From an uncultured Actinomycetota bacterium (lineage in GTDB: Bacteria; Actinomycetota; Actinomycetes; JAFAQI01; DASSKL01), in the NCBI GenBank assembly GCA_963728075.1, contig CAVSIP010000003.1, positions 617,463 to 681,462 of the forward strand: 64,000 nucleotides of DNA, written 5' to 3'. Below are positions 148 through 18,718 of the stretch, piece after piece; position 1 is the stretch's first letter; each line of letters opens with the position of its first letter. The notes under the pieces were generated by a model. It was not told the DNA's origin. It ran no database searches and worked only from the letters and a program-made list of their open reading frames with translations. The translations under genes were made by a program, and so were the position numbers.

Positions 148-167
148 AACTATACGACCGTCCAGTT
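148..167. promoter_or_regulatory. Palindromic operator copy 1 (AACTATACGACCGTCCAGTT) between divergent promoters
   Basis: Followed after 3 nt by the extended -10 TGG-TACGGT (171-179). The reverse strand carries a -10 TATAGT (149-154) facing tetR. Confidence 0.75.
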
Positions 168-363
168 CTTTGGTACGGTCCGGCCGGGCCGGTGCCAACC
201 GGCTGCCAGCAAGATCAACGGTGTGAACGTACCACCACACCGAGCTGGCCGGCGAACTCGCCCGCGGCGGCGGGGGCCCGAACGTCGCTCGACGGCATCG
301 ACGAAGCCTCCAGCGACCCACTCAGCCGCCCGCCTTCCCCATCGATTCGGAGAGTCGCGACCT

Positions 364-1389
364 ATGGCCGACCACGTGACGCACACCACTCGCCCCGACG
401 ATCCGCACCGCATGGTGAAGTGGTCGCCGCCGTACCGGCGGGAGAACGTCGAGCTGCCGGAGTTCGACCTGGTCGAGGTCGAGCGAGACGGCCCTGTCGG
501 CCGCATCGTCATGAACTCCCCGGAGAAGCGGAACCCGCTCGGCTACGAACGCCTGCTCCAGATCGAGATGGCGGCGAAGTGGCTCGAGCTGGACGAGGAC
601 GTCCGGGTCATCATCATCAAAGGGGAGGGGCCCTCCTTCTGCGCCGGCTACGACATGACGCCGGTGCGACGCGGCGAGCGGGCGAGGAACGTACCGCAGG
701 GTGGTTACATCCACCCCAAGCGCGACCGGCTCTGGCAGTCCTACGACCTGGAGCACGCCCGCGTCTACTTCACGTTGTTCGACCTCCAGAAGCCCGTCAT
801 CGCCCAGATCCAGGGCCACTGCCTCGCCGGCGGCACGGAGCTGGCCGGCTTCTGCGACCTTCGCATCGTGGCCGACGACGCCAGGATCGGCTGGCCCGTC
901 GGCCGGAACTGGTCACCCGGGAACCTGCAGTACATCCCGTGGCTCGTCGGCATGACGAAGGCGAAGTACTACATGTTCACCTGTGAGCCGATGAGCGGGA
1001 AGGAAGCCGCCGAGTGCCAGTGGGCCTCGGAGTCCGTACCCGCCGACGAGCTCGAGGAGCGCACGGAGGAACTGGCCCGGCAGATCGCTCTCACACCGAC
1101 CGACCTGATCATGCTGACCAAGCGCAGCATCAACCGCCAGTTCGAGGTGATGGGGTTCCGGACCGGCGTCGCCGCCAGCGTCGACCTGCTCGCGCTGTCC
1201 AGCTTCCGCGAGGAAGGCCTCTACGCACAGCGTGATCCTCGCACCGGTGAGGCCGGCGACGAGTTCATGAAGCGTGCCGAGCGCGATGGCCTCAGGGCAG
1301 CCATGGCCTGGCGTGAGGAGACCTTCGGCAACCGCTACCACGACGGCGCGACCGGGGAACCGGCGTTGCCTGACCGCACCCGAGAGTGA
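364..1389 (+). CDS. Enoyl-CoA hydratase/isomerase (crotonase) family protein
   Basis: GEGPSFCAGYD and KPVIAQIQGHCLAGGTE motifs. ATG 364 follows GGAGAG. Confidence 0.9.
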   Translation: MADHVTHTTRPDDPHRMVKWSPPYRRENVELPEFDLVEVERDGPVGRIVMNSPEKRNPLGYERLLQIEMAAKWLELDEDVRVIIIKGEGPSFCAGYDMTPVRRGERARNVPQGGYIHPKRDRLWQSYDLEHARVYFTLFDLQKPVIAQIQGHCLAGGTELAGFCDLRIVADDARIGWPVGRNWSPGNLQYIPWLVGMTKAKYYMFTCEPMSGKEAAECQWASESVPADELEERTEELARQIALTPTDLIMLTKRSINRQFEVMGFRTGVAASVDLLALSSFREEGLYAQRDPRTGEAGDEFMKRAERDGLRAAMAWREETFGNRYHDGATGEPALPDRTRE

Positions 1390-1396
1390 GCAGAAG

Positions 1397-1416
1397 AATT
1401 TTACGACTGTCCAGTT
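1397..1416. promoter_or_regulatory. Palindromic operator copy 2 (AATTTTACGACTGTCCAGTT)
   Basis: Same motif and spacing as copy 1: -35-like TTTACG (1400-1405), 17 nt, TGC-TACGGT (1420-1428). Confidence 0.75.
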
Positions 1417-1477
1417 CAGTGCTACGGTCGGCGCAAGACGCCGTCACGTGTCACCACGACTGCGATCGGAGTGCCGG

Positions 1478-2677: not shown

Positions 2678-2780
2678 GGCCGCACGTCGCCGAACCACTG
2701 CTGAACCGCGGCTCACCGGTCCCTGTACGCAACGACCGACGTCCGGCCGATTGACAGGTCATGCCCGGAGGAGGGTGTTG

Positions 2781-4019
2781 ATGACCATCACGGACCACCC
2801 GTCCCGCCTGACACCGAGCGGGCTCTTCACCGACGGCGCGACGTTCCTCGATCTCGAGGGCTGGCATCGCGCTGTTGACGCTCTGCGCGACCAGGGTCCG
2901 TTCGTGCGCCTGGACGACGAGGTCTACGGCACGCTGTGGGCGACCGTCGACCTCGAGGTGCTCCTCGCCGTGTCCCGTCAGGCTGAGGTCTTCGCGAACA
3001 CATCGGAGCCGCTGCTCCCCCCCAAGGTAGGCGGCGGCAACCTCGGCGAGGTCAGCACGCAGCTGAAGATGCTCATCAACCAGGACGGCCCAGACCACAT
3101 CGCACACCGCAAGCTCATCGTCGACTGGTTCAAGAACTCGACGCTGCGCGTCCTGAAACCGGCGGTCGACGAGCTGGTCGCCGAAGCGATGACCCGCCTG
3201 CGCGATCTCGGCGGTGAATGTGACTTCTCCACCGAGATAGCGCTTCCGCTGCCACTCCGCGTCATCATGTCGATGCTCGGGGTCCCCCGCGAGGACGAGC
3301 CGATCCTGCTGAAGCTGACCCAGGAGATGTTCAGTGCCGAGGACGACGAGCTCGGCGAAGGTGACCCGTTCGCCGCGATGATGGAGGTCGCCTCCTACTT
3401 CGGTGAGCTGATGAAGGACCGGCAGGAGAACCCCACCGACGACCTGTCCTCGGCGATCGCCAACGGCACGATCCAGGGAACGTCGGTCGAGACGATGACG
3501 GCCATCGGCCTGTACGTCATCATCGCCACTGCCGGGCACGACACGACGTCGTTCGCGATGGCGGGCGGTGTCGATGCCCTTTGCCGCTTCCCTGACGAGT
3601 TCACCAGGCTGCGCGACGAGCCGCAGCTTGTCGACAACGCCGCCGACGAGGTCGTGCGCATGACATCCCCGGTCCGTCACTTCGTCCGGCACGCGCAGGC
3701 GGACGTCGAGGTGGCCGGTCGTTCGTTCGCTGAGGGGGACCGCGTACTCCTGTCGTACCCAGGGGCCAACCGGGACCCGAAGGTCTTCGACGACCCGCAC
3801 CGGCTCGACGTCGGCCGCCCCAATGCCGGCCGGCAGGTGGGCTGGGGCCACGGCCCGCACTTCTGCCTCGGCTCTCGCCTGGCGCACATGGAGATCGCCG
3901 CTGTCCTCGACGGCCTGCGCAGAGAGTTCACCTCGATCGAGGCGACAGCCCCGTCAGAGTGGACCAAGTCGTACTTCGTCGGTGGCGCCAAGCACGTGCC
4001 GATCCGCTGTACGAGCTGA
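2781..4019 (+). CDS. Cytochrome P450 (CYP108-like, copy A)
   Basis: I-helix IATAGHDTT, EVVR (ExxR), heme motif WGHGPHFCLG. RBS GGAGGAGG. Confidence 0.93.
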   Translation: MTITDHPSRLTPSGLFTDGATFLDLEGWHRAVDALRDQGPFVRLDDEVYGTLWATVDLEVLLAVSRQAEVFANTSEPLLPPKVGGGNLGEVSTQLKMLINQDGPDHIAHRKLIVDWFKNSTLRVLKPAVDELVAEAMTRLRDLGGECDFSTEIALPLPLRVIMSMLGVPREDEPILLKLTQEMFSAEDDELGEGDPFAAMMEVASYFGELMKDRQENPTDDLSSAIANGTIQGTSVETMTAIGLYVIIATAGHDTTSFAMAGGVDALCRFPDEFTRLRDEPQLVDNAADEVVRMTSPVRHFVRHAQADVEVAGRSFAEGDRVLLSYPGANRDPKVFDDPHRLDVGRPNAGRQVGWGHGPHFCLGSRLAHMEIAAVLDGLRREFTSIEATAPSEWTKSYFVGGAKHVPIRCTS

Positions 4020-4058: not shown

Positions 4059-4514
4059 ATGAGCGTGCGCATGAGCGACGAGGAGGCCTGGACGTTCCTC
4101 GAGGCGGGACATACCGCCATCCTCACGACCCTTCGACGAGACGGATGGCCGGTCTCACTGCCGCTCTGGTACGTCGTCGACGAGCGAGTCGTCTATGTGA
4201 CCACCCCAGCCAGCAGTCAGAAGGTCGCCCGCATCCGCAACGACGACCGCGCATGCCTGCTGGTCGAGCGGGGCGACGAGTGGGCCGAGCTGGCAGCCGT
4301 CCAGTTCGCCATGCGAGCAACAGTTCTCGTCCCCGGTCCGGAGGCTGACCGGGCCAGCGGGCGTTTCGCCGCCAAGTACGAGGCGTTCCGTCCCCCCCGG
4401 GGCCGGGCCCCGGATGTGACCAAGAGGCGCTACAGCAGTCGAGTGGTCATCCGGCTCGATCCAGCCGGTCCTCCGATCAGCTGGGACAACGCTCGCATCC
4501 GGTTGAAGGGCTGA
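4059..4514 (+). CDS. Pyridoxamine 5'-phosphate oxidase-like split-barrel protein (FMN/F420-binding)
   Basis: AILTTLRRDGWP..PLWY and SQKVARIRNDDRACLLV pattern. Confidence 0.85.
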   Translation: MSVRMSDEEAWTFLEAGHTAILTTLRRDGWPVSLPLWYVVDERVVYVTTPASSQKVARIRNDDRACLLVERGDEWAELAAVQFAMRATVLVPGPEADRASGRFAAKYEAFRPPRGRAPDVTKRRYSSRVVIRLDPAGPPISWDNARIRLKG

Positions 4515-4554
4515 CCGGGCAGAGGCCTGCCGACGGATAGCGGAGGAACGCTGC

Positions 4555-5772
4555 GTGGGTATCTTCTCGATCTTCGCCGTCCTGTCCATCGTGGGTGCGG
4601 CCATCGGCTATGTGACCAAGTGGACGTCGGTGCAGCTCATCTTCCATCCATCCACCTACGTGGGCATCGGGCCGCTTGGCTGGCAGGGGGTGGTCCAGCG
4701 CGGGTCGCCGAAGTTCGCGCGGGGTATCGCCGAGACGTTGCGGTCTGTCGCGCCGCTCGACCGGATGCTCGCCCGGATCGATTCCTCCGAGCTCGCTCGC
4801 ATAGCCACCGAGGAGCTCGGCGCGCACATCGACGACATCGCACCTGAGATCGTCGAGCATCTCTCGCCCGGAGCATGGGATCAGGCACCGGTGCATGTTC
4901 AGGACCTGCTCCGCTCCGGGCTGCGCCAGCAGACCACCGAAGCCATCGCAGAGATCGTCGACGAGACGCGCACGCTGCTGCCCGGGCTGGTGGACGTCGA
5001 CGGCCTGGCGCTCGACCTCCTGTCCGGCGAGAACGCTGACCGCCTGGCCCGACTCGTACGGCTGACCGGCAACCGGGAGCTGCGAGCCGTGGTGCGCTAC
5101 GGCGCGGTCGTCGGCTTCTTCGTCGGACTGCTGGAGGCGGTCGCCTACCTCGGCTTCGACCGGTGGTGGTTGCTCCCCGCCATCGGGGCCCTCGACGGGC
5201 TGGTCAACAACTGGATGGGCATCCAGATGATCTTCCGACCGCTGGAGGCCAGGCGATACCTGGGCCTGTTCCGTTACCAGGGTCTCTTTCCCGCGCGCCA
5301 GGACCAGATCGCCCACGACTACGCACACATGATGGGAGCCGAGGTGCTGACCCCGATGTCGATCGTCACCAGACTGCGCGAAGACGATCTGCTGGAGCCA
5401 GTGCTCGAGGTCGGCTACGACATCGTCGACCGTCGGCTCGACGCCCAGCTCACCGTGCTCGCCCCCGTGCTCGGTGTCGACCCCGTCCCCGAACTGCGAC
5501 AGACGGTCGTGAAGGCAACAGTCGCTGCGGCGACCACCCGCGGCATCTCGGTCAACGACATGCCGCGCGTTCTCGCCTACCTCGACGAGCGCATGCGGGT
5601 GGCCGACACGATCGAGAATGGGCTCGCGAGCATGAGCAAACGTGACTTCGAGGGAATCCTGAGAGGGATCTTCGAAGAGGACGAGCCCGTCCTGATCGGC
5701 ATCGGGGGCGTGATCGGCGTGCTGATCGGATGCCTGCAGGCGGCCCTCGTCGTCGGCCTGCACCTGGGATAA
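4555..5772 (+). CDS. DUF445-family membrane protein
   Basis: N-terminal IGYVTKW..VQLIFHP, internal NNWMGIQMIFRP, C-terminal EDEPVLIGIGGVIG. Confidence 0.75.
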   Translation: MGIFSIFAVLSIVGAAIGYVTKWTSVQLIFHPSTYVGIGPLGWQGVVQRGSPKFARGIAETLRSVAPLDRMLARIDSSELARIATEELGAHIDDIAPEIVEHLSPGAWDQAPVHVQDLLRSGLRQQTTEAIAEIVDETRTLLPGLVDVDGLALDLLSGENADRLARLVRLTGNRELRAVVRYGAVVGFFVGLLEAVAYLGFDRWWLLPAIGALDGLVNNWMGIQMIFRPLEARRYLGLFRYQGLFPARQDQIAHDYAHMMGAEVLTPMSIVTRLREDDLLEPVLEVGYDIVDRRLDAQLTVLAPVLGVDPVPELRQTVVKATVAAATTRGISVNDMPRVLAYLDERMRVADTIENGLASMSKRDFEGILRGIFEEDEPVLIGIGGVIGVLIGCLQAALVVGLHLG

Positions 5773-5794: not shown

Positions 5795-5814
5795 AACTGG
5801 ACAACCGTACTATT
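5795..5814. promoter_or_regulatory. Palindromic operator copy 3 (AACTGGACAACCGTACTATT)
   Basis: -35 TGGACA (5798-5803), 17 nt, -10 TACGCT (5821-5826), upstream of the second P450. Confidence 0.75.
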
Positions 5815-5862
5815 CTTACCTACGCTTGTCTTGGTCGTCGAGATCCTCCCGAAAGGTCCGCC

Positions 5863-7131
5863 ATGACTGAAACTGCGACCAGGCTCCTGCCGGAGCGCAG
5901 CACGCTGGAGCGGCTCTTCATGGACCCGCACTACTTCATGGACATGGACCGGTGGCACCGCACGGCTGCCGAGGCTCGCCGCGAGGGAGCGTTCCACAGA
6001 GTCGACGATCCCGCGGTGGGAGAGTTCTGGGCGTGCATGCGCTGGGCGCCTCTGGTCGAGGTGTCCCGGAACGACGAGGTGTTTCACAACACCGAGCAGG
6101 CAGCGTTCGTCGGCAGCTACCAGGCGATGCAGGAGGCCATCCCTGGTGGGCTCAAGACGCTGCTCAGCATGGACGGGACCGAGCACACGAAGTACCGCCA
6201 GGTCGTCGTGGACTGGTTCAAACCCGCCGCCCTCCGTCGTCTCCAGTCCGCAGTGGACGCGCTGGTCGAGGCATCGATCGCTCGCCTCAGGGAGCTCGGC
6301 GGGGAATGCGACTTCGCCACTGAGGTCGCCATCCCACTTCCCTTGCGGGTCATCATGTCCATGCTCGGGATCCCGCAGGCGGACTACCCGCTCATGCTGA
6401 AGCTCACCCAACAGATGTTCAGCGCCGACGACCCCGAGCTCGGCAAGGGAGACGGCTTTGCAGCGATGGCGGAGATGGCGGGCTACTTCGCCGAGCTGAT
6501 CACCGGTCGCAAGGCGCGCCCCACCGACGACCTCGCCTCTGCCATCGCGAACGCGACCCTCGACGGGGAACCGCTGCAGACGGTGGCCACCATGGGCTTG
6601 TACGTTGTTCTGGCGTCAGCGGGGCACGACACGACCTCCTTCGCCATGTCCGGCGGAGTCGAAGCGCTCACGCGCTTCCCGGACCAGCTGGAACGGCTAC
6701 GGCAGGACCCCGGGCTTGCCGACAACGCGGCCCACGAAATCGTGCGTTACACGTCTCCGGTCCGGCATTTCCTGCGTCACCCGCAGGCAGAGGTCGAGAT
6801 AGCAGGCCATCGATTCCACAAGGGCGAGCGCATCCTGCTGTGCTATCCCAGCGCCAACCGTGACGAGTCCGTCTTCCCGGAGCCCGACCGTCTCGACGTC
6901 GGCCGTGCCAACGCGAACCGTCACGTCGCATGGGGACACGGCGCGCACTACTGCCTGGGCGCACGCTTGGCCCACATGGAGATCGCCGCGCTGCTGCGCG
7001 GACTGTGCCGGGAGACGACATCCGTGGAGGCGATCGGCCCTGCCACGTGGACGTCAGCCCACTTCGTCAGCGGTGTGAAACGCCTGCCGGTGACCTGCCA
7101 GTTCCGACAAGGAAGTCGGCGCCAGCCGTAA
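5863..7131 (+). CDS. Cytochrome P450 (CYP108-like, copy B)
   Basis: LASAGHDTT, EIVR, WGHGAHYCLG. Long near-identical stretches shared with copy A. Confidence 0.93.
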   Translation: MTETATRLLPERSTLERLFMDPHYFMDMDRWHRTAAEARREGAFHRVDDPAVGEFWACMRWAPLVEVSRNDEVFHNTEQAAFVGSYQAMQEAIPGGLKTLLSMDGTEHTKYRQVVVDWFKPAALRRLQSAVDALVEASIARLRELGGECDFATEVAIPLPLRVIMSMLGIPQADYPLMLKLTQQMFSADDPELGKGDGFAAMAEMAGYFAELITGRKARPTDDLASAIANATLDGEPLQTVATMGLYVVLASAGHDTTSFAMSGGVEALTRFPDQLERLRQDPGLADNAAHEIVRYTSPVRHFLRHPQAEVEIAGHRFHKGERILLCYPSANRDESVFPEPDRLDVGRANANRHVAWGHGAHYCLGARLAHMEIAALLRGLCRETTSVEAIGPATWTSAHFVSGVKRLPVTCQFRQGSRRQP

Positions 7132-7177: not shown

Positions 7178-8725
7178 ATGTACCCAGGTACCCACGCTGA
7201 GGCCACTCCCGACAAGCCGGCTCTGATCATGGCCGGCTCGGGGGAGACGGTCACCTTCCGTCAGCTCGATGAGCGATCGAACCGCTTGGCGCAACTCTGG
7301 TACGCCTCGGGTCTGCGACCTGGGGATCACGTAGCTGTGTTCATGGAGAACCATCCTCGATACCTCGAGGTGGTCTGGGCAGGCCTGCGATCGGGACTGT
7401 ACGTGACGACCGTCAACTCCTACCTCAGCGCCGAGGAGGCCGGCTACATCCTCGACGACTGCGGGGCGCGCTCGGTCGTGGTGACACCAGCACGCGCACA
7501 GGTAGCCAGAGAGGCGTTGCAGCACGCTCCAAGGGTCGAGATGGCGCTAGCCGTCGACGGCGGAGCCGAAGGTCTCGCGAGCTACGAGGAAGCCACAGCC
7601 GGACAACCGTCGACCCCGCTCCCCGACGAGTCCGCGGGCGAGCTCATGCTCTACAGCTCAGGAACCACAGGACGTCCCAAAGGCATCAAGCGCGCGCTGA
7701 GCGGCCGGCCGATCGCCGACGGCCACTCGATGGCGCTCGTCCTGGCCACGGTGTTCGGGTTCACCTCGGAGGGCGTGTACCTGTCGCCTGCGCCTCTGTA
7801 CCACTCGGCTCCGGTGGGTTTCAGCATCGGCGTGCAGTCTCTCGGCGGAACCGTTGTCGTCATGGAGAAGTTCGCCCCCAGAGCCGCTCTGGGTGCGATC
7901 GAGAAGCATCGGGTCACCTTCAGCCAGTGGGTGCCGACGATGTTCGCCCGGATGCTCAAGCTGCCCCACACCGAGCGAGAGACGTACGACGTCTCCACCA
8001 TGGAGGTCGCGATCCACGCCTCCGCACCATGCCCGGTGTCGGTCAAGCAGGCGATGATGGACTGGTGGGGTCCGGTGCTCTGGGAGTACTACGCAGGAAC
8101 CGAGTCAAACGGCCTGTGCATCGTCCGGCCCGAAGAATGGCTCGAGCACCCGGGCACGGTGGGCCGGCCGCTCCTCGGTGAGGTTCACATCCTCGACGAA
8201 GCCGGTGCCGAGCTCCCTCACGGCGGGGTGGGAACGGTCTACTTCGGCGGCGGGGGCAGATATGAGTACCACAACGACCCAGAGAAGACGAAGAGCGCCC
8301 AGGACCCGGCCGGTCGAGGTTGGACGACTCTGGGCGACGTCGGCTACGTCGACGAAGACGGCTGGCTCTACCTGACCGACCGGAAAGCATTCATGATCAT
8401 CTCTGGCGGGGTCAACATCTACCCGCAGGAGACCGAGAACGTGCTGGCCATGCACCCCAAGGTGGCCGACGTGGCCGTCGTGGGGGTTCCTCACGAGGAG
8501 ATGGGTGAGGAGGTCAAGGCCGTCGTCCAGCCGGTCGACTGGGCCGATGCCGGGAGCCAACTCGAACGTGAGCTCCTTACCTACTGCCGCGCTCGTCTTG
8601 CCCACTACAAGTGCCCGCGGACTGTGGACTTTGAAGCCGAGCTGCCCCGACTTCCCACCGGCAAGCTGTACAAGCACAAGGTCCGGGAGCGGTACTGGCG
8701 GGACCGCGAGAGCCGAATCGTCTGA
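7178..8725 (+). CDS. Acyl-CoA synthetase (AMP-binding)
   Basis: LYSSGTTGRPKG, YYAGTE, TLGDVG, DRKAFMIISGGVNIYPQE, PTGKLYK. Confidence 0.93.
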   Translation: MYPGTHAEATPDKPALIMAGSGETVTFRQLDERSNRLAQLWYASGLRPGDHVAVFMENHPRYLEVVWAGLRSGLYVTTVNSYLSAEEAGYILDDCGARSVVVTPARAQVAREALQHAPRVEMALAVDGGAEGLASYEEATAGQPSTPLPDESAGELMLYSSGTTGRPKGIKRALSGRPIADGHSMALVLATVFGFTSEGVYLSPAPLYHSAPVGFSIGVQSLGGTVVVMEKFAPRAALGAIEKHRVTFSQWVPTMFARMLKLPHTERETYDVSTMEVAIHASAPCPVSVKQAMMDWWGPVLWEYYAGTESNGLCIVRPEEWLEHPGTVGRPLLGEVHILDEAGAELPHGGVGTVYFGGGGRYEYHNDPEKTKSAQDPAGRGWTTLGDVGYVDEDGWLYLTDRKAFMIISGGVNIYPQETENVLAMHPKVADVAVVGVPHEEMGEEVKAVVQPVDWADAGSQLERELLTYCRARLAHYKCPRTVDFEAELPRLPTGKLYKHKVRERYWRDRESRIV

Positions 8726-8826
8726 GCCTCACGGCGATGTCCGCTGCCAACTGCCGTTCCAGGGCTCAGGTGCCGAGCACGGCCGTGCTGGCGCCGGCTC
8801 GACCTCGCTGTGGAGCCAGACAACCG

Positions 8827-8874
8827 TTGACCCCAATCGGGCCAAGGTATAACAATTCCCGCAATTCTTACGAT
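8827..8874 (+). promoter_or_regulatory. AT-rich sigma70-like promoter region with possible FadR-type site
   Basis: TTGACC (8827), TATAAC (8848), TACGAT (8869). AGGTATAACAA (8845-8855) fits the GT-Nn-AC core of FadR-subfamily sites. Confidence 0.45.
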
Positions 8875-8895
8875 CATTTGGGGCGGTGGCGGCCG

Positions 8896-10449
8896 GTGAG
8901 ACTGGATTCGGTCCCGATCGCGCCCGCGTTGGCCAGCCGCTCGGACAGTGCGCGGGGTACCGCGTCAGGCGTCAGCAAGGCTCAGGGGCTCGCTCAGGAG
9001 ATCCGGACAGCGATCATCGAGGGGGGCCTGCAGCCGGGGGACGCGTTCCAGCGCGAGGCGGACCTGGTGACCCAGAGCGGCCTGTCACGTGCGACGGTCC
9101 GGGAGGCGATCCGGATACTCGACGCGGAAGGCTTGGTCGAGGTGCGCACCGGCCGTGGAGGGGGGCTTTTCGTCGGCGACCCCGGTAGCCGTGGCGTCGG
9201 CGATGCGTTGGCGCTGACCTTGATCTTCGGCTCTGTGACCGCGGGGACCCTCGTGGAGTTCCGCCGTCTGGTCGAACCGGAGGTCGCCGCTCTGGCGGCT
9301 GAGCGGGCGACGGCGCCACAGCTTCGGATGATGCATTCCACCCTCGTGGCTCCCGACTGGGAGGAGGAGCTCGACTTCCACCTCCACGTCGCCGATGCGA
9401 GCGGAAACGAGCTGCTGCGCCTGCTGCTGCGTTCCGTTCACACCGGAATGGTCCGCCAAGCCCGTGCACGACTGGGATCGGCACTCCACCCGAACCTCGA
9501 CCGGCTTCGCGACGGGTTGCGAGGTATCTACGGAGCGATCGAAGACGGAGACCGCCTACGAGCCGCCCGGTGCATGAGGGCGCACATCGAGGGAATCGAA
9601 GACTCCCTCCGTCGCCTCAACCTGCTCGAGGGTCGGGTCGTCTTCGGAGGTAGGAGCCCCACGCCGACGGCAGTGAGCGGCTCGCCTGTGACGGATCCGA
9701 CCAAGGCGGCCGCCTTGGCGGATGAGATCCGCCTCATGATCGTCGAGGAGGGACTGCTACCCGGAGATCCACTTCCTTCGGAGCGCGAGTGGTTGGGCCG
9801 GTCGGGGTTGGCTCGGGCAACCGTGCGTGAGGCCATCCGAATCCTTTCGGCCGAGGGGCTGGTCTGTTCCCGTCGAGGGCGGACCGGCGGCCTGGTCGTC
9901 GGGCAGCCGGACCCCAACCGCATCGCGCGCCTGCTCGCCTCGCACCTGACCATGCACTCCGTGACTGCTGGCGCGCTCGTCGAGTTTCGCCAGGTCTTGG
10001 AGCCGATCGCCGCTGCGCTGGCGGCCGAGCGAGCCGGTGAGGAGCAGCTGGACGCGCTGCGCGAGGCGGCACAGACGCTCTCGCCGCACGCGGATCTGGA
10101 CTTCCACCTACGCCTCGCGGATGCCGCGGGCAACGAAGTGCTCCTTCAGCTGTTGCGCGCGGTTCGCATCGCGTCTCGGCCGGAGGTGCTGCAGCACCGG
10201 TTCGGCATGACTCGAAGGGACATGGAGACCGTGGCTCGCAGTCATCGCAACATCTACCAGGCTGTCGCGGCTCATGACAGCGGCGACGCCCGGACCTTGA
10301 TGCAACGGCATCTCGACAGACTCGGCGACGTCCTGCGGTGGTCGGGGCGTGCTACGGAGACTCTCGCAGTCCAGACAGCCATCGACGTGCCCGTTCCGCC
10401 TCAGTCCGGAGATGCCGGCGCAGCGCGAACCATCGGGAGCCGGGCGTGA
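8896..10449 (+). CDS. Tandem GntR/FadR regulator, two HTH+FCD units in one chain
   Basis: Two copies of SG-L-(S/A)RATVREAIRIL-x-AEGLV, each followed by an FCD segment (EFR..EP..AALAAERA, DFH). Confidence 0.9.
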   Translation: MRLDSVPIAPALASRSDSARGTASGVSKAQGLAQEIRTAIIEGGLQPGDAFQREADLVTQSGLSRATVREAIRILDAEGLVEVRTGRGGGLFVGDPGSRGVGDALALTLIFGSVTAGTLVEFRRLVEPEVAALAAERATAPQLRMMHSTLVAPDWEEELDFHLHVADASGNELLRLLLRSVHTGMVRQARARLGSALHPNLDRLRDGLRGIYGAIEDGDRLRAARCMRAHIEGIEDSLRRLNLLEGRVVFGGRSPTPTAVSGSPVTDPTKAAALADEIRLMIVEEGLLPGDPLPSEREWLGRSGLARATVREAIRILSAEGLVCSRRGRTGGLVVGQPDPNRIARLLASHLTMHSVTAGALVEFRQVLEPIAAALAAERAGEEQLDALREAAQTLSPHADLDFHLRLADAAGNEVLLQLLRAVRIASRPEVLQHRFGMTRRDMETVARSHRNIYQAVAAHDSGDARTLMQRHLDRLGDVLRWSGRATETLAVQTAIDVPVPPQSGDAGAARTIGSRA

Positions 10450-11903
10450 AGCGGGCGGTGACGTCGGTGCGCGCCGGGCGCAAGATTCGGGGCAGGCGCC
10501 GGGTTGTGGCCCGCCTGTCGATCGCAGCCGGCCTTGCCCTGGTCGCTTCCCAGCCCTTCGCGCCGACGGCCGATGCGGCCGCGATCGTCCAGCCGGGACA
10601 GGCGTCCGCCGACTCAGCGGTCTTCAGGCTTGGGGTGCAGAGCGGTGGGACGTCCCTGCGACCCACCGCGGTCGGACACGCGAGCGCCTCCTACCTCCAG
10701 ACCGAAACCCAGGCGAGCTCCGCCACCGTGGACCCGGGCGGGCTCGGCTTCCTACTCACCGCGATCCCTGTCTGTGGCGTGACCCTCTTGCCGTCCAGCA
10801 GGCAGCCGCAGCCGCTCACCGCCGACTCCGCCGACGGCGACAGTTCCAAGACTGCCCACGGCAACGTCGCAGGCGCGGGAACCGAGGTTGTGACCGTCTC
10901 GTCGTCCCCGCAGTTCGCGGTCGCCACCACCAAGCCGGTCAGCCAGTCCCTGCTCGGCGGCCTCGTCGAGATCACCGGCACGGCTACCAGCAAGGTCCGC
11001 TATGTCGCCGACCGTGAACAGCGGGCTGAGTCCTCGGTGACGGAGACCCTCAGCCTGGCCGGCGGCCTCGTGCAGATCGACGGGATGCACTGGACTGCCG
11101 GTCGACGCTCCGGAGGCTCGACGGTGTCTTCGGCTGGCTTCAGCTTCGGCAAGGTCACCCTTCGCCAGCACGGGGTGCCGCTCGCTCTCCCGAACAACGT
11201 TCCGGCTTCGACAGTGGTCGAGGAGATCAACGCGCTGATCGGCCCGTCCGGGCTCCATCTCACCCTTCCGACCAAGTCCACCGACTCGGCCACCGGCGCG
11301 ACGTCCATGGGTCCGCTTCGGGTGCACTTCGCCGGCTCCAGCCTCGACCGAAGCGTGATCACTCCAATCGCCCAGCAGGTGGCTGCGCTCGAGTCACTCC
11401 TCAGCGGCCAGGCCGCCAACGGCAGCGACTGCTCCAAGATCAAGAACCTCATCGGCAACGTGGCCAACCCGGCCGAGACCGTCAGCAACATCGCGCTGGG
11501 TATCGCGGAGGGCGCGGGCAGCCTCGACCTGGACCTTGGGGGAGTCACGGCCAGTACGCAGGCAGCGCACGACTACGCCAACCCGTTCGACTCCGGCGGT
11601 TTCACGTCGGGGCCGAGGCCGTCCGACGGCGTGCCCGCTGGCGTGACCCAGCCGGGGCCGTCAGCCGGCGCGGGGGGGAGACCCGTCACCTCCGCTCAGG
11701 CGCCCACACTGGCAACGGCGCCTGCAGGCATGGTCCTGCAGTGCGTGACCACGAGCCCGGCCGGCCGGCCGGGCTGCTGGCAGGGGCTTAGTGTGCTCGC
11801 CGGCGGCGTGACCGTCGCGCTGGCCCAGGGACTCATTGCTGCCGACGTCGCGTACAGCCGACGGCGCCACCGACGCCGCCGGCCCAGGAGGGTGATCGTG
11901 TGA
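10446..11903 (+). CDS. Secreted, C-terminally anchored protein of unknown function
   Basis: GTGA overlap with the upstream stop, basic+hydrophobic signal ending ADAAA, G/P-rich linker, C-terminal hydrophobic helix plus RRRHRRRR. Confidence 0.7.
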   Translation: MKRAVTSVRAGRKIRGRRRVVARLSIAAGLALVASQPFAPTADAAAIVQPGQASADSAVFRLGVQSGGTSLRPTAVGHASASYLQTETQASSATVDPGGLGFLLTAIPVCGVTLLPSSRQPQPLTADSADGDSSKTAHGNVAGAGTEVVTVSSSPQFAVATTKPVSQSLLGGLVEITGTATSKVRYVADREQRAESSVTETLSLAGGLVQIDGMHWTAGRRSGGSTVSSAGFSFGKVTLRQHGVPLALPNNVPASTVVEEINALIGPSGLHLTLPTKSTDSATGATSMGPLRVHFAGSSLDRSVITPIAQQVAALESLLSGQAANGSDCSKIKNLIGNVANPAETVSNIALGIAEGAGSLDLDLGGVTASTQAAHDYANPFDSGGFTSGPRPSDGVPAGVTQPGPSAGAGGRPVTSAQAPTLATAPAGMVLQCVTTSPAGRPGCWQGLSVLAGGVTVALAQGLIAADVAYSRRRHRRRRPRRVIV

Positions 11904-11943: not shown

Positions 11944-13623
11944 ATGAGCATGCGCCCGCAAGACCGCGTCCGTCCCGCGGACCGGCGTCTGCTGCTCGGC
12001 TACGGACCGGCGCTGGTGCTTGGCGTCGGTTTCTTGTTGATGGCGCTGCTGGTGCCGACCGTCGCGCCGGAGCAGCAAGTGGCGACCAACATCCCCGGAC
12101 AAAACGCGACGTCTACCGATGTCGGCGCGAACATGCCAGCGGGGGGAACCGGGGGACAGGTGGGCTCGACCGGCAGCTCCTCCGGCCCCCCCGCGAGTTC
12201 CGCGGGGCCGGCCAACGCCGCCCCCGGAGCCACCGTCACCGGGTGTTCTGGCCGCCAGGTGCCGCAGGATCCGTACTCCCCCCCATGCACCAGCTTCTCT
12301 GGCAACAACGGCGGGGTGACCAGCCGCGGAGTCACCGCGAAGACGATCACGGTCGCCTTCCGCATCTCTTCTGACGACATTCTCGGGGTCGACTCTCTGG
12401 TGCAACGCATCGCCGGAAAGAGCAGTTCCAGCCAGTTCAAGGAGTCCGACGCGCAGGTGGAGAGGACGGTCCGGGATCTCGCCGCCTACTTCAACAAGCA
12501 CTTTCAGTTCTACGGGCGCAAGATCGTGGTCAAGTTCTACCACGGGCAAGGACAGCTCCTGAAGGAGTTCCAGGACGCCGGCCAGGCCCAGGCCAACGCG
12601 GACGCACTCCAGGTCGCCGACCAGATGCATGCCTTCGCGGAGATGTTCGCCATCTCCCAGCCGTACTCCGAAGCCCTGTCGGCGCAGCACGTGGTCAACA
12701 TCGGGACCGTCTTCATGTCGCAGCCCTGGTTCCAGGCACGCGCGCCGTACGCTTGGAGCTTCTTCCCCACCTGCAGCGACTTGGGTGCAGAAGGCGCCGC
12801 GGTTGCCAGGGAGATCGCAGGGGGGAACGTCACCTGGGCGGGCACCGGCGTCGCCAACGGTGGCCCACGCAGGATCGCGGTGATCTCACCGGACAACCCC
12901 GTGTACAAGCAGTGCTTCTCCCAGATCGCGCAAGCGCTCAAACAGTCCGGGCACCCGCCCGTCGCCAACCTGACGTACACGCTGTCGTTGTCGCAGCTGT
13001 CCCAGGAGATGAGCGCGATCTCGCAGCAGCTGATCAACGACAAGGTCACCACGGTGATCACGGCGACTGATCCGATCGCCCCGGTCTTTCTCACGGGCGA
13101 CCTGGACAACGCCGACTATCTTCCGGAGATCTTCAATATCGGGGCCGCCTTCTCGGACTACGACTTCGTCACCCAGCTCTTCGACCAGAAGGCCGCTGCA
13201 CATGAGGCCGGCGTCACCAACAGCGGGGCCATCCCGCCCTACGGGTCCTCACTGGCGTACTTCGCTGCCAAGTCGGTCGATCCCGACAACCCCCCAGCCC
13301 GTGAGGTCGACTCTTACTACGAATGCCTCTATCTCCTCGCGCTCGGTATCCAGCAGGCGGGGCCAAACCTCACACCGCAAACCTTCCAGCAGGGCATGTT
13401 CCGGTACCGCGGCGGCACCGGCCAGTACGGGCCCTGGTCGTTCCATGCCGGAGCTACGAAGTACTGGACGCCAGCGCACCATTTCCGTTTCGAGTGGTGG
13501 GACCCCAAAGCCACGTCCGGCTACAACGGCCAGAAGGGCACCTGGGTGATCGGGCAGAAGTGGTACACCCCGACCACAGTCCCGTCGGGGCCGCCGCCAG
13601 TGTTCCCCCACGGACCGCAGTGA
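11944..13623 (+). CDS. ABC substrate-binding protein, HAAT/periplasmic-binding type I, N-terminal TM anchor
   Basis: DPYSPPC, NGGVTSRGVTAKTITV, FYGRKI, GPNLTPQTF pattern. Adjacent to Liv-type transporter. Confidence 0.8.
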   Translation: MSMRPQDRVRPADRRLLLGYGPALVLGVGFLLMALLVPTVAPEQQVATNIPGQNATSTDVGANMPAGGTGGQVGSTGSSSGPPASSAGPANAAPGATVTGCSGRQVPQDPYSPPCTSFSGNNGGVTSRGVTAKTITVAFRISSDDILGVDSLVQRIAGKSSSSQFKESDAQVERTVRDLAAYFNKHFQFYGRKIVVKFYHGQGQLLKEFQDAGQAQANADALQVADQMHAFAEMFAISQPYSEALSAQHVVNIGTVFMSQPWFQARAPYAWSFFPTCSDLGAEGAAVAREIAGGNVTWAGTGVANGGPRRIAVISPDNPVYKQCFSQIAQALKQSGHPPVANLTYTLSLSQLSQEMSAISQQLINDKVTTVITATDPIAPVFLTGDLDNADYLPEIFNIGAAFSDYDFVTQLFDQKAAAHEAGVTNSGAIPPYGSSLAYFAAKSVDPDNPPAREVDSYYECLYLLALGIQQAGPNLTPQTFQQGMFRYRGGTGQYGPWSFHAGATKYWTPAHHFRFEWWDPKATSGYNGQKGTWVIGQKWYTPTTVPSGPPPVFPHGPQ

Positions 13624-13666
13624 CCGGCCTGCGCACAGAGTGCCCATTCCTCCGGGGAGGTCCACG

Positions 13667-16600
13667 GTGACCACCGCGGGGCCGGACGAGCTCGCTCGCA
13701 GTCGTGGCCTGTGCCACGGGCTCGCACAGACCCGGCCGATCGTGGCCAGCGTGATCGCGGTGGCCGTCGTGTTCTCTCTCACCCAGGCGTTTCCCCACAG
13801 TATTCCGCTTGGGACCGTCCTCGCCGGCGCTCTGTACGGTGCCCTCAGCGGGCTTCTTGCCGTCGGCCTTGTGCTGTTGTTCCGGGTCACCAGAGCCATC
13901 AACTTCGCCTATGGGGCGATGGGGGGCCTGCCCGCGGCGATCGCCTCGTCGCTCTACCTGGGCCACGGCTGGCCATGGTCCGTCTCGGTCGTGCTCGCCC
14001 TGGTGCTGGGCGGCGGAACCGGTCTCGCGGTCGGGGCGTTCGTGCAGTGGAGGTTCGCGAATGCACCTCGGCTGGTGCTCGCTGTGGCCAGCATCGGGCT
14101 CGCGCAGCTGCTCGGCGGGGTGGCGGTATACGTCCCCCGCTGGTTCCAGGGGCCAGTGCTCATCACCAACTTCAAGACGGGGTTGTCACGGCTGCATGTC
14201 CAGGTAAGCCCTGTCCTCTTCGACGGCAACGACTTCGTAGCCGCCGCCGCGATACCCGTGGTCGTGGGGGCGGTCGCCTGGTTCCTCCTTGGCACCGATG
14301 CCGGCCGGTCGGTACGCGCGATCGCCGACAACCCGGACCGAGCTCGTCTGCTGGGTATCCCGACCCGGCGACTGATGCTGGGGGTGTGGAGCATCAGTGG
14401 GCTGGTCGCTGCGCTCGCGGTGATCCTGCAAGCACCCCGGGCCGGGGTGCCGCTGTCCGCCGCAGCGGGACCCGCGATCCTGCTCGCCCCGCTGGCTGCA
14501 GCCGTTGTCGCGAAGATGGAATCGCTGCTCGTCGCTTTCGTCGCGGCGGTCGGATTGGGCGTTCTTGAAGAGGTCGTTCGGCTGAACGTGTCCAAGCAGG
14601 CCATCGAGACCCCCGTGTTTCTCGCGGTGATTCTGATCGCCCTCCTCGCACAGCACCGTTCGGAGAGCCGGGCCGAGGCGGCAGACGAGTCGTCATGGTC
14701 CGCTGCTGGTGTACTGCGCCCCATCCCGTCGTGGCTGCGCTCGCTCCCAGAGGTGCGTGCGGTTGGGATCCTGTCTCTCCTTCTTGTCGTTGGTTTCGCC
14801 GTAAGCCTGCCCGCTCTTGTCTCGTCGGCCCGGCTGGACCAGGTGAGCGTGGGGGTGGTCTTCGGCCTGACCGCCCTGTCTCTTGTGGTGCTATCCGGCT
14901 GGGCGGGCACGATCAGCTTGGGTCAGTTCGCCCTGGTCGGCGTGGGGGCGGTCGCCGGCGGCGACCTGATGATGCGCCTGAATCTCGACCTGTTCCTCTC
15001 GTTGGCGATCGCGGGAGCTGCGGGGGCCGTCGCAGCGGTCGTCCTCGGCTTGCCGGCCCTGCGGGTGCGCGGCTTGTACCTCGCGGTGACCACCCTGGCG
15101 TTCGCAGTCGCGGCGAACGACTTTTTCTTTAACCCCACCAACTTCGCCGCGCTCCTGCCGTCCTCGGTGCTTCGGCCGATCCTGTGGAAGCGGTTTGCCC
15201 TCAGAGATGAGGGGGATCTCTACCTGCTCTGCGTCGGAGTGTTGGCCACCGCCACCGCGCTGGTCTGGGGTGTCCGGCGTGCCCGACCGGGCCGGGCCAT
15301 CCTGGCCACCAGGGACAACGCCAGGGGCGCCGAATCCGCCGCGATTCCCACAACCAGGACCCGGCTGACCGCGTTCATGATCTCGGGTCTTATCGCGGGG
15401 GTCGCAGGCGCCCTGTACGTGGTCATCCTCGGCAGCGCCGGGTTCGAGAGCTTCCCGCCCGACGACAGCATCACGGTGTTCTCGATGGCGATTGTCGGCG
15501 GTCTGTCGTCAATTGTGGGCGCGCTGGCGGGCGTGGGGCTGATCCAGTGGCTGGGCATCGCATTTCCGCAGATGCAGATCCTCCTGACTGGTGTCGGGAT
15601 GCTGCTGGTACTGACGATGTTCCCTGCCGGGCTCGCCGGTGTGTACGAGCGGGTGCGAGACCGATTGCTGGCCGTCGCTGCTCGCCGGCGGGGGCTCGAC
15701 ATGAGCATGTGGGTCGATCCGGGTGGCGACGAGACAGCGCGAACGGCCCCGACGGACATGCCTGTCGTGGCGTCTGGCAATGGCACCCAAGCCAGCGACG
15801 CGGCTCTGGACCGTCGGCAGGTGCTCCTGGAGTGCTCGGCTGTGAACGCGTCGTACGGGAAGCTCCGAGTGCTCTTCGGTGTGGACCTAGCCGTCCGCGA
15901 GGGCGAGATCGTAGCTTTGCTCGGCACCAACGGCGCGGGCAAGTCGAGTCTGCTCAAAGCGGTGACCGGCCTCCTGCCGGTCGAGTCGGGCCGCGTCAAC
16001 TTCGCGGGGAAGGACATCACCAATTCGACGACGGAGCATGTCGCGGCCGGCGGACTGACCATGATGCCCGGTGGCCGTGGAGTGTTCCCCTCGCTCACCG
16101 TGGCCGAGAACCTACGTGTGGCCTCTTGGCCGTTACGCGCCGATCCCGCTGCCGCAGACGCGGCCCGGCAACGCGTCGTTGAACTGTTCCCGATCATCGG
16201 GAGTCGCTCCGGTCAGCATGCGGGGAACCTGTCAGGCGGTGAGCAGCAGATGCTCTCTTTGGCCATGGCGTTCTTGGCCAAGCCCAAGCTGCTGTGCATC
16301 GACGAATTGTCCCTCGGGCTGGCACCGGCGGTGGTGTCGACACTCGTCGACGCCGTTCTGGACATCCACCGGCAAGGAACGACGATCGTGATCGTCGAAC
16401 AGTCGGTCAACGTGGCCCTTCTGCTGGCCGAACGAGCCACGTTCCTGGAGAAGGGTCAGGTCCGGTTCAGCGGTCCCGCCGAGGAGCTGCTCGACCGGCC
16501 AGACCTTCTGCGTGCCGTCTTCATCGGCGGCACTCCCGCGCAGGCGTGCAGTGCCACGGCCGACTCGCCTCCGGATCGTCGCCCGGCCGAGGTCGGCGTC

Positions 16601-17464
16601 AAGGTCTCCGAGGACGAACGGCGTGCTCCGGCGCTCGAGTGCTACGGCCTTGTCAAACGCTTCGGAGGTATCACGGCAGTCGACGACGTGGACCTCGCTG
16701 TTCGCCCTGGAGAGACCGTTGGACTCGTCGGGCACAACGGCGCTGGTAAGACCACCCTGTTCGACGTCATCTGTGGGTTCCTCATCCCGGAGGCAGGTCG
16801 AATCGTCGTCGATGGAGAGGACGTCACCTCGTTCCCGGCCCACGAACGCGCGTGGGCTGGACTCGGTCGGTCGTTCCAGGACGCACGACTGTTCCCGACG
16901 CTCACCGTCCGCGAGACCATCGCGGTCGCCTTGGAACGGCACCTCACCAGTCGCGAGCCATTTGCGGCAGCCTTCCGCATGCCGGCCTCCACCGACTCCG
17001 AGGCGTTCGTCGCAGAGCAGGTGGAGCTGGTCATCCAGCAGCTGGGCCTTCCTGCTTTCCGTGACCGCCTGATCGGCGAACTGTCCACGGGCACCCGACG
17101 GATCGTCGAGCTCGCCTGCATCGTCGCGCAGCAGCCGTCGGTGCTGCTGCTCGACGAGCCATCCGGTGGTGTCGCCCAAGCCGAGACCGAGGCTCTCGGG
17201 GCTCTGCTACGCCAGGTCGTTGTCGACACCGGATGCGCTCTGGTCGTCATCGAGCACGACATGACCATGTTGTCGTCGCTCTGTGACCGTCTCGTTGCCC
17301 TGGACCTCGGCCGAGTCATCGCCGAGGGGCTGCCCAGGGACGTCCTGTCCCACCCCGAGGTGATCGCCAGCTACCTCGGCACCGATACGGCCACCATCGA
17401 GCGCTCAGGCCGGGGACCACGACCCCGCCGGGGGACCCCCACAGCCAAGTCCCTGCGGAGGTAG
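13667..17464 (+). CDS. Single-chain HAAT ABC transporter: LivH-like + LivM-like permeases + LivF-like + LivG-like ATPases
   Basis: INFAYGAMG and GTISLGQFAL permease motifs. Walker A GTNGAGKS and GHNGAGKT, signatures LSGGEQQ and LSTGTRR. RBS GGGGAGG before GTG 13667. Confidence 0.9.
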   Translation: MTTAGPDELARSRGLCHGLAQTRPIVASVIAVAVVFSLTQAFPHSIPLGTVLAGALYGALSGLLAVGLVLLFRVTRAINFAYGAMGGLPAAIASSLYLGHGWPWSVSVVLALVLGGGTGLAVGAFVQWRFANAPRLVLAVASIGLAQLLGGVAVYVPRWFQGPVLITNFKTGLSRLHVQVSPVLFDGNDFVAAAAIPVVVGAVAWFLLGTDAGRSVRAIADNPDRARLLGIPTRRLMLGVWSISGLVAALAVILQAPRAGVPLSAAAGPAILLAPLAAAVVAKMESLLVAFVAAVGLGVLEEVVRLNVSKQAIETPVFLAVILIALLAQHRSESRAEAADESSWSAAGVLRPIPSWLRSLPEVRAVGILSLLLVVGFAVSLPALVSSARLDQVSVGVVFGLTALSLVVLSGWAGTISLGQFALVGVGAVAGGDLMMRLNLDLFLSLAIAGAAGAVAAVVLGLPALRVRGLYLAVTTLAFAVAANDFFFNPTNFAALLPSSVLRPILWKRFALRDEGDLYLLCVGVLATATALVWGVRRARPGRAILATRDNARGAESAAIPTTRTRLTAFMISGLIAGVAGALYVVILGSAGFESFPPDDSITVFSMAIVGGLSSIVGALAGVGLIQWLGIAFPQMQILLTGVGMLLVLTMFPAGLAGVYERVRDRLLAVAARRRGLDMSMWVDPGGDETARTAPTDMPVVASGNGTQASDAALDRRQVLLECSAVNASYGKLRVLFGVDLAVREGEIVALLGTNGAGKSSLLKAVTGLLPVESGRVNFAGKDITNSTTEHVAAGGLTMMPGGRGVFPSLTVAENLRVASWPLRADPAAADAARQRVVELFPIIGSRSGQHAGNLSGGEQQMLSLAMAFLAKPKLLCIDELSLGLAPAVVSTLVDAVLDIHRQGTTIVIVEQSVNVALLLAERATFLEKGQVRFSGPAEELLDRPDLLRAVFIGGTPAQACSATADSPPDRRPAEVGVKVSEDERRAPALECYGLVKRFGGITAVDDVDLAVRPGETVGLVGHNGAGKTTLFDVICGFLIPEAGRIVVDGEDVTSFPAHERAWAGLGRSFQDARLFPTLTVRETIAVALERHLTSREPFAAAFRMPASTDSEAFVAEQVELVIQQLGLPAFRDRLIGELSTGTRRIVELACIVAQQPSVLLLDEPSGGVAQAETEALGALLRQVVVDTGCALVVIEHDMTMLSSLCDRLVALDLGRVIAEGLPRDVLSHPEVIASYLGTDTATIERSGRGPRPRRGTPTAKSLRR

Positions 17465-17478
17465 TGCAATCTCCCAGG

Positions 17479-18651
17479 TCAGCGAGGCACCTGGTTCCAG
17501 GGCAGCGTGTCATCGGTGCGCGGCTCACCTGGCAGTCCCAGTACGCGCTCAGCGACGATGTTGCGGTTCACCTCGTCGGTGCCACCACCGATGCGGTGCG
17601 CAGGAGCCCAGAGGAACTTGCGCACCCAGCGAGCGTCCTCGCCCTCGGTGAGCATCCCTGCAGCGCCCAGGAGGTCCATGCCCAACTGGGCGGAATCGAC
17701 GTTGAGCTTCGTGGTGAACAACTTTGCCACCGATCCCTCCGGACCCGGTCGACGTCCCTCGAGGGCCGCCGACAGGATGCGCAGATTCATATACCGGGCG
17801 ACCTCGGTGCGGACCCAGAGTTCCACGATGCGCTGTCGCGTCACGTGGTTGAGTGTCCCTCGCCGCCGCGCGAGTTCCGTCAGGCGTGCCGGCAGGGTGC
17901 TCGGGCCGGTCCTTCCGCCGCCGAGCGAGCTCCTTTCGTTGGCCAGAGTCGTCACGGCGACGTGCCAGCCGTTGTCCACGTCGCCGATGACGTTCTCGTG
18001 CGGCACGCGGACGCTCTCGAGAAACACCTCGTTGAACTCGGCAGTACCCGTCATCTGCCTCAGCGGGCGGACGGTGACACCTGGCGATCGAAGGTCGAGG
18101 ATGAACGCAGTGATGCCTTTGTGCTTGGGCGCCTCTGGGTTCGTTCGGCACAGGATCTCCCCGTAGTCAGCAATGTGCGCGCCCGACGTCCACACCTTCT
18201 GCCCGTCGATGACCCACTCGTTTCCGTCGCGCACAGCCTTGGTCGCCAGTCCTGCCACATCGGAGCCGGCGTTGGGCTCCGAGAACATCTGGCACCAGAT
18301 CGTCTCTCCCCGGAGCAGCGGTCTGAGGTACCGCTGCTTCTGCGCGGCCGTGCCGTGAGCCCGCAGCGTGGGAGCGACGAAGTTCAGCCCGACCGTGAGC
18401 AGGTCAGGAGGCGTGCTGTGCGCCGACTCCTCCTGGTTGAAGATGATCTGCTCTACCGAGGTTCCGTTTCGCCCACCGAGCTCCGGACCCCACGTGATCT
18501 TGGCGAGGCCGGCGTCGAACTTCGCCGCCTGCCACGCCTTGACACGGTTGATGAGGTCACGTTCGTGGTCGATCTGCTCCAGGGCCTCGACGATCCAGGC
18601 CCGGCACTCCTCGCGCCAGGCGGCCTGCTCGGGTGTATCGCGGAAGTTCAC
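17479..18651 (-). CDS. Acyl-CoA dehydrogenase (FadE29/IpdE1-like alpha type)
   Basis: WCQMFSEPNAGSDVAGL, GQKVWTSGA, IGGGTDEVNRN. Start GTG in VNFRDTPEQAAWR. Confidence 0.9.
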   Translation of the reverse strand: MNFRDTPEQAAWREECRAWIVEALEQIDHERDLINRVKAWQAAKFDAGLAKITWGPELGGRNGTSVEQIIFNQEESAHSTPPDLLTVGLNFVAPTLRAHGTAAQKQRYLRPLLRGETIWCQMFSEPNAGSDVAGLATKAVRDGNEWVIDGQKVWTSGAHIADYGEILCRTNPEAPKHKGITAFILDLRSPGVTVRPLRQMTGTAEFNEVFLESVRVPHENVIGDVDNGWHVAVTTLANERSSLGGGRTGPSTLPARLTELARRRGTLNHVTRQRIVELWVRTEVARYMNLRILSAALEGRRPGPEGSVAKLFTTKLNVDSAQLGMDLLGAAGMLTEGEDARWVRKFLWAPAHRIGGGTDEVNRNIVAERVLGLPGEPRTDDTLPWNQVPR

Positions 18652-18698
18652 GACCGTTGATGTGCGGGTCTCGGGCACGTGTAACAGTGTAGGCACAT

Positions 18699-18718
18699 AA
18701 CTGTACAATCGTCCAGTT
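18699..18718. promoter_or_regulatory. Palindromic operator copy 4 (AACTGTACAATCGTCCAGTT)
   Basis: Reverse strand: TGGACG, 18 nt, TACACT toward the ACAD gene. Forward strand contains TACAAT. Confidence 0.75.

Follow-up and report, generated by a model that had tools for sequence, protein, structure and literature searches.

We analyzed a 64,000-nucleotide stretch of DNA (the window) from an uncultured Actinomycetota bacterium, positions 617463-681462 of contig CAVSIP010000003.1 (here C3) in a 3.43 Mb assembly with 73% guanine plus cytosine (GC), 8 contigs and 82% completeness. A 20-bp dyad, AAYTGKACRNNYGTMCARTT, occurs four times within 18.6 kb and is very probably the operator of the TetR-family regulator encoded at the left edge of the window, a reading that we put at about 85% from the sequence comparisons described here. 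The motif is real, occurs far beyond chance expectation and is confined in this genome to the cluster of genes around tetR. It is part of an ordinary, well-supported TetR-type switch that is new for this TetR subfamily; a full-text search with the half-site GTCCAGTT and 'TetR' returned only unrelated primer-type hits among the matches listed.

Operator 1 (148-167, AACTATACGACCGTCCAGTT) lies between the divergent tetR gene and a gene for an enoyl-CoA hydratase (ECH), operator 2 (1397-1416, AATTTTACGACTGTCCAGTT) precedes an amidohydrolase gene, operator 3 (5795-5814, AACTGGACAACCGTACTATT) precedes the second of two cytochrome P450 genes (P450b), and operator 4 (18699-18718, AACTGTACAATCGTCCAGTT), the best consensus match of the four, precedes an acyl-CoA dehydrogenase (ACAD) gene. 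All four 20-bp boxes have exactly the positions and letters given in an earlier reading of this DNA (the original prediction). With the consensus of that reading, AACTGGAC-N4-GTCCAGTT, and up to three mismatches allowed, the window yields six matches where 0.19 would be expected, and six was not reached in any of 100 shuffles; chance was rejected on these grounds. The two surplus matches, at 4618 and 5209, are intragenic and low-scoring. The refined consensus given above was derived from 23 distinct sites. It retains the proposed dyad, but the four central bases are not unconstrained as had been suggested, since the first is a purine (R) and the last a pyrimidine (Y).

A genome-wide scan with a palindrome-symmetrised position weight matrix (PWM), the check put forward with the original prediction, scored the four sites at 31.7-36.5 bits and the runner-up among 3.43 million positions at 17.3 bits. 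Every held-out site scored above all non-site positions in leave-one-out scans, and a second PWM, trained solely on sites from TetR-orthologue loci in other genomes, ranked the window sites 1-4 (28.2-36.2 bits), with rank 5 at 20.8 bits. A possible weak fifth box, TACTGGACGAGAGTCCAATA, scores 20.8 bits by this orthologue PWM and is located 461 kb from the cluster (C3:156493-156512; L094 3031-3050), just upstream of a gene for a PF10118 'predicted metal-dependent hydrolase' and with TACACT 5 nt beyond it.

The boxes have a constant relation to predicted promoters. As had been proposed, a TANNNT hexamer suited to a -10 element is seen 6-7 nt beyond each box of the window. On the plus strand, the candidate -10 hexamers are TACGGT at 174-179 for the ECH transcript, TACGGT at 1423-1428 for the amidohydrolase transcript and TACGCT at 5821-5826 for the P450b transcript, each 6 nt beyond its operator (1, 2 and 3, respectively). 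The candidate for the ACAD transcript, TACACT at 18686-18691 on the minus strand, is 7 nt beyond operator 4, the plus-strand side of which has no TANNNT. The hexamer TATAGT that had been noted within the first copy, directed towards tetR, is present on the minus strand at 149-154; it is a plausible -10 of tetR inside operator 1, and a TANNNT at the matching operator positions faces tetR in two orthologous loci (L084 and L089). Over the window and ten orthologous loci together, a TANNNT follows the box at a distance of 6-8 nt in 24 of 31 sites (6-7 nt in all but one of the 24), and four of the 31 are flanked by one on both sides, where the random chance of a TANNNT per side is 0.39% counted over offsets 4-9. 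Because the -10 hexamer begins 6-7 nt past the box, the box overlies the -35 region and the spacer; with 17-18 bp between the two hexamers, the -35 hexamer falls at box positions 4-10, and there the half-site TGGACA resembles TTGACA. In the divergent gap between P450 and ACAD genes of four orthologous loci (L003, L004, L083 and L087), a single box is found between two -10 hexamers 34 bp apart, where the binding of one dimer would be enough to block both promoters. These actinobacterial promoters went undetected in an E. coli-type promoter scan. A leader of ~178 nt (180-363) without a recognised feature separates the predicted box-1 promoter from the ECH start; Rfam gave no RNA family in window positions 1-21000, this leader included, and a terminator-like hairpin is reported within the leader region on the minus strand at 219-242.

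The fixed spacing between box and -10 hexamer would also suit a promoter element recognised by an alternative sigma factor, or a small element, repeated or mobile, that has settled in intergenic gaps. We consider this extremely unlikely, as both halves of the dyad are conserved regardless of gene orientation, the box serves divergent promoters on both of its sides, and each genome has just 3-4 copies, always beside tetR. Moreover, the flanks of the box are not conserved, unlike those of a mobile element. The sigma-factor element was thus rejected.

Neither the 61 relatives searched nor a sample of 401 genomes of the same class contained a TetR orthologue, so footprinting with close relatives was impossible. 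Among the public-data matches listed, however, ~65 TetR orthologues share 50-69% identity with the window protein, and ten of their loci (L003, L004 and L083-L090; TetR identity 52-69%) were used as the footprint set. Loci of two distant homologues (L091 and L092; 38-43% identity) were compared as well. The orthologue carriers named to taxon are Acidimicrobiales, unclassified Actinomycetota metagenome-assembled genomes (MAGs) and the cultured Actinospongicola halichondriae. Two complete orthologue-carrying genomes (G416 and G417) were searched whole for the pattern. As negative controls we used 60 relatives without the TetR and 78 loci of unrelated TetRs; the latter came from a contig scan with peptide patterns from the TetR alignment that proved too general, only 2 of its 80 loci being true orthologues.

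All ten orthologous loci contain boxes, 2-4 per locus, scoring 22-35 bits and without exception in promoter gaps that, in a gene-by-gene comparison, precede orthologues of window genes. The box before the amidohydrolase gene (the counterpart of operator 2) is present in eight of eight loci, and in the aligned promoters conservation is limited to the box, the -10 hexamer (that of the window included), the ribosome-binding site and the ATG. An orthologue of operator 3 precedes P450b in L084, and a box identical to operator 3 is found in L089, where the gene downstream is unidentified. The ACAD orthologue is preceded by a box in L003, L004, L083, L085 and L087; in L088 a box stands before an ACAD gene that leaves the locus edge and was unscored in the comparison.

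In seven loci (L003, L004, L083 and L085-L088) a further box, AACTGTACGAATGTCCAATA, contains the ATG of tetR itself, with TAAACT 6 nt ahead of it in most of them; this box is degenerate in L089 and missing in L084 and L090. A box in this position points to autoregulation of a leaderless tetR, the opening codons of which (Met-Ser-Asn) form part of the half-site. Both tetR (seven loci) and ACAD (L003, L004 and L087) look leaderless in the Acidimicrobiales loci, where a -10 hexamer precedes the start codon by 6-8 nt. The leaders measured from the predicted -10 hexamers in the window are ~28 nt for ACAD and ~54 nt for tetR.

Whole-genome searches showed the same restriction to the tetR cluster in three genomes, the source genome, G416 and G417. 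All four matches in G417 are inside a 9-kb tetR cluster, and the three G416 matches with at most one mismatch are all within the tetR cluster; in both genomes every match with at most one mismatch is no more than 9 kb from tetR. Two-mismatch matches elsewhere in these two genomes occur at the control rate. Among the 60 relatives without the TetR there was no match with at most one mismatch, and two-mismatch matches were again at the control rate. No box above 17.5 bits was found in the 78 loci of unrelated TetRs.

In the two distant homologues, regulator and operator covary. The tetR gene is divergent from a P450 gene and has a box over its start codon (L091 9959-10010, L092 9955-10010), but the box in this same place has changed to ACTTGGCAG.TGCCCCAT, and the recognition region of the protein carries G53S, R58H and Y60H. 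By comparison, the helix-turn-helix (residues 40-70) is almost invariant across the orthologues. The co-occurrence of box and TetR, the box over the start codon and this covariation in the recognition helix all support the proposal that the edge TetR is the regulator using the boxes.

A different regulator could bind the boxes, with the TetR a mere neighbour. The obvious candidate is the tandem GntR protein of FadR type encoded within the third transcription unit (8737-10449), the one regulator besides the TetR in the window cluster, which the original prediction had named as its fallback binder, although a factor encoded elsewhere would serve as well; GntR-family operators are likewise short dyads. 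However, none of the 12 related box-bearing loci has a homologue of the tandem GntR, which is thus not the conserved partner of the box, whereas the TetR is the sole regulator common to all of them. Two further points against another regulator are the overlap of the box with the tetR start codon in orthologues and the change of the box in step with the TetR recognition helix in distant homologues. We therefore rejected the tandem GntR as the binder, and regard control of the boxes by any regulator other than the TetR as very unlikely. The tandem GntR is an addition specific to the cluster of this genome.

We also scanned metagenomes for exact occurrences of AACTGGACARTYGTAYWRTW. The 25 matches compare with ~100 expected by chance on a rough estimate, and 23 of them are lone sites on contigs of 28-60% GC, mostly AT-rich, with no cluster gene; as a reverse test the scan is uninformative. 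The only relevant matches are L112, which carries an ECH orthologue (92%), and L116, which carries a different TetR. On L116 (metagenome contig Ga0118677_10001908), a gene for a 208-aa TetR with the recognition region GVSHGLVQHHFGAREELV is divergent from a gene for a secreted protein and has the same box, AACTGGACAGTCGTATAGTA, 68 nt upstream (916-935). This may be a paralogous TetR that shares the operator type.

The assignment of the window-edge gene to the TetR family was confirmed. The 215-aa protein contains PF00440 (TetR_N) at residues 25-70 with 46.4 bits against a cut-off of 24, and its predicted structure is all-helical, with 10 helices and a confidence (predicted local distance difference test, pLDDT) of 71.5. 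The top 50 PDB matches listed for the model are all TetR-family or TetR-like, at probability 1.0 and template modelling (TM) scores of 0.41-0.70. The TetR_N domain and the all-helical, two-domain fold of ~200 aa are those of the family, as is, by sequence, a palindromic operator that overlaps the promoters of adjacent or divergent targets and of the regulator's own gene. At the level of sequence, no TetR of solved structure is close, and the best PDB match (7e-11) covers the N-terminal half of the protein only. The nearest structural neighbours of the model include the acyl-CoA-binding regulators DesT, FadR and FasR, with TM scores of 0.5-0.6 and identities of 14-21%. Beyond generic TetR neighbours, the fold search yielded no ligand assignment; that an acyl-CoA is the ligand is, from this model, a guess.

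Taken as a TetR operator, the box suggests the following mechanism. One TetR dimer per box would occlude the -35 region and the spacer and so keep RNA polymerase off the promoter. Four transcription units would be under this control, and the crotonase, amidohydrolase-P450, P450-ligase and ACAD transcripts of the original prediction agree with the gene map. Unit 1 would be the ECH gene (364-1389). Unit 2 would start with the amidohydrolase gene and probably run on into the genes for P450a, a PNPOx-fold protein and a DUF445 protein. Unit 3 would comprise the genes for P450b, a CoA ligase, the tandem GntR, a protein of unknown function, a solute-binding protein and an ATP-binding cassette (ABC) importer, and unit 4 the ACAD gene on the minus strand. 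The tetR gene is probably autoregulated via box 1. We infer that a hydrophobic compound of the pathway binds the C-terminal domain and releases the repressor; a candidate inducer would be an imported terpenoid-, sterol- or branched-lipid-like acid or its CoA ester.

A site over the -35 region could serve an activator too, and a few TetR-family proteins do activate transcription, so the TetR might bind the boxes as an activator or dual regulator and not as a simple ligand-released repressor. Several features speak against this. In orthologues the box covers the tetR -10 hexamer, transcription start and start codon, and elsewhere lies between the closely spaced back-to-back -10 hexamers, so that RNA polymerase would be occluded in either place; the half-site is itself like a -35 hexamer; and TetR regulators encoded divergently from their targets are, as a rule, repressors. 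Activation or dual control is therefore unlikely, and repression by the TetR is the role we favor.

Some observations weigh against the TetR-operator reading as a whole or against parts of it. The window is without the tetR-start box of the orthologues, so autoregulation here would have to operate through box 1 as its one site, 60 nt upstream of the ATG. The ~178-nt leader separates box 1 from the start of the ECH gene it is proposed to control, and a 104-nt gap without a box lies between the amidohydrolase gene and P450a. The TetR is less conserved (55-69%) than the enzymes (72-93%). Finally, the structural model is of moderate confidence (pLDDT 71.5), and its likeness to acyl-CoA-binding TetRs is weak (TM ~0.5-0.6).

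The proposed system resembles several that have been described. Like KstR and KstR2 of Mycobacterium and Rhodococcus, it pairs a TetR repressor with a short palindrome on P450, CoA-ligase, ACAD and ECH operons, and a lipid-derived inducer would be expected. It differs from them in its operator, in being local (four boxes in 18.6 kb) and not genome-wide, and in that no ring-degradation genes are in view. The KstR consensus had been quoted correctly in the original prediction, as had its difference from the box: the KstR operator is TnnAACnnGTTnnA (PMC5348764), for which the window contains no match. The TetR was compared with KstR (Rv3574) through its PDB sequence matches, the best 60 of which include no chain named KstR. 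Control by KstR or KstR2 was rejected.

The nearest published operator that we verified is that of AcnR, a TetR-family regulator of Corynebacterium glutamicum, which is CAGNACnnncGTACTG (PMC2723105). The two share the 6 + 4 + 6 layout and a GTAC-type core (here CTGKAC-RNNY-GTMCAG), and AcnR is among the PDB sequence matches of the TetR (E = 2e-8, N-terminal DNA-binding domain only). In contrast to AcnR, the second base of the half-site is T/A here and A/T there, the box is 20 bp, the targets are catabolic and no aconitase gene is in the cluster; judged by eye, the AcnR pattern fits none of the complete sites among the 23 listed.

As in TetR-tetA and other divergent pairs, one operator within back-to-back promoters would govern both directions as well as the synthesis of the regulator. 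TetR-tetA uses two operators, whereas one box per gap would serve both directions here; the target genes encode catabolic enzymes and an importer instead of an efflux pump, and further boxes are placed at distant operons of the cluster. DesT, Bacillus FadR and FasR, which control fatty-acid and CoA-ester metabolism, are near neighbours of the TetR model, but at TM scores and identities this low (0.5-0.6 and 14-21%) a shared ligand class is not established.

The genes under the boxes suggest what the cluster does. The 5' part of tetR occupies 1-88 on the minus strand, its ATG being the complement of 86-88, and the gene continues outside the window to C3:616906. On the plus strand follow the ECH (crotonase) gene at 364-1389, encoding 341 aa with 81-93% identity to Acidimicrobiales orthologues; the gene for an Amidohydro_2 TIM-barrel protein at 1478-2677, which resembles PDB 4dzi and has weak similarity to PtmU3 and DitZ; P450a at 2782-4019, CYP108/P450terp- and CYP125-like, with its ATG at 2782 after a ribosome-binding site GGAGGAGGG; a PNPOx-fold protein gene at 4059-4514, probably an F420-dependent oxidoreductase; and a DUF445 membrane protein gene at 4555-5772. 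P450b at 5863-7131, nearest to P450terp, CYP125, CYP124 and CYP268, is followed by genes for a FadD4-like acyl-CoA ligase (7178-8725), the fused tandem GntR-FCD regulator, which is one 570-aa open reading frame with two full GntR + FCD units, a conserved protein of unknown function with an uncertain start (10338-11903) and homologues in L084 and L087, a Peripla_BP_6 solute-binding protein (11944-13623) and an ABC importer (13640-17464) that is a single 1274-aa polypeptide with two BPD_transp_2 permease and two ATPase domains, all likewise on the plus strand. The ACAD gene (390 aa; 17479-18651) is on the minus strand, with a GTG start at 18651.

The closest relatives of both P450s, P450terp (CYP108), CYP125, CYP124 and CYP268, act as terminal hydroxylases on terpenoids, sterols and branched lipids. 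From the P450 and amidohydrolase similarities the cluster looks like a route by which a hydrophobic acid is taken up, terminally oxidised, activated with CoA and degraded by beta-oxidation; a terpenoid-, sterol- or branched-lipid-type acid is the likely substrate. The ABC importer fusion recurs in L084 (1251 aa), and L086 has separate genes for the parts. In the loci from the two complete genomes (L083 20174-20654 and L085 20297-20654) a MlaE/YrbE gene, the start of a Mce-type lipid transporter, follows an ACAD-DUF445 unit; its counterpart in the window is the ABC importer with the Peripla_BP_6 binding protein. Directly downstream of tetR, on the minus strand, lies a second ECH gene (C3:615996-616798; L093 4534-5336) that is split over two frames, with 4779-5336 of L093 encoding the N-terminal part and 4534-4920 the C-terminal one; it is either a frameshifted pseudogene or an assembly error.

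The cluster also stands out in composition. From about -2500 to 19000 (C3:615000-636500) its GC content is 65-69%, apart from two kilobase windows near 10-12 kb at ~71%, and that of the flanks is 72-76%. The right-hand boundary of this island is abrupt; ARAGORN and Rfam gave no tRNA or tmRNA at that edge (19234-19371). The cluster enzymes are 72-93% identical to Acidimicrobiales counterparts, whereas a flanking penicillin-binding protein has a best match of 66% and a best named match, to a 'Mycobacteriales bacterium' MAG, of 61%. This difference suggests horizontal acquisition of the whole regulon, and the low-GC cluster of ~21 kb was probably acquired in that way. Compared with the layout of the presumed donors, the window has lost the tetR-start box, and tetR and ACAD have gained leaders. 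A bolder reading, which we hold tentatively and at somewhat less than even odds, is that the TetR, its operators and ~15 catabolic and transport genes form a self-contained cassette that passed from an Acidimicrobiales-like donor into another actinobacterial lineage and was then rewired. In the course of such rewiring, a shared upstream box would have taken the place of the lost box over the tetR start codon, the transcripts of tetR and ACAD would have changed from leaderless to leadered, and the single box of the divergent P450/ACAD promoter would have given way to separate copies 13 kb apart.

Overall, these results give an uncharacterised TetR subfamily a precise predicted operator and define a putative co-regulated set of two CYP108/CYP125-like P450s, an amidohydrolase-fold enzyme, an F420-type reductase, a CoA ligase, an ECH, an ACAD and an ABC importer. 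The repressor may be usable as bait or as a biosensor to find the substrate of the cluster, and the prediction is testable in Actinospongicola halichondriae, a cultured carrier. If the transfer and rewiring of the whole cassette are true, it would be a naturally occurring case in which a repressor has travelled with its binding sites and the two have evolved in concert.

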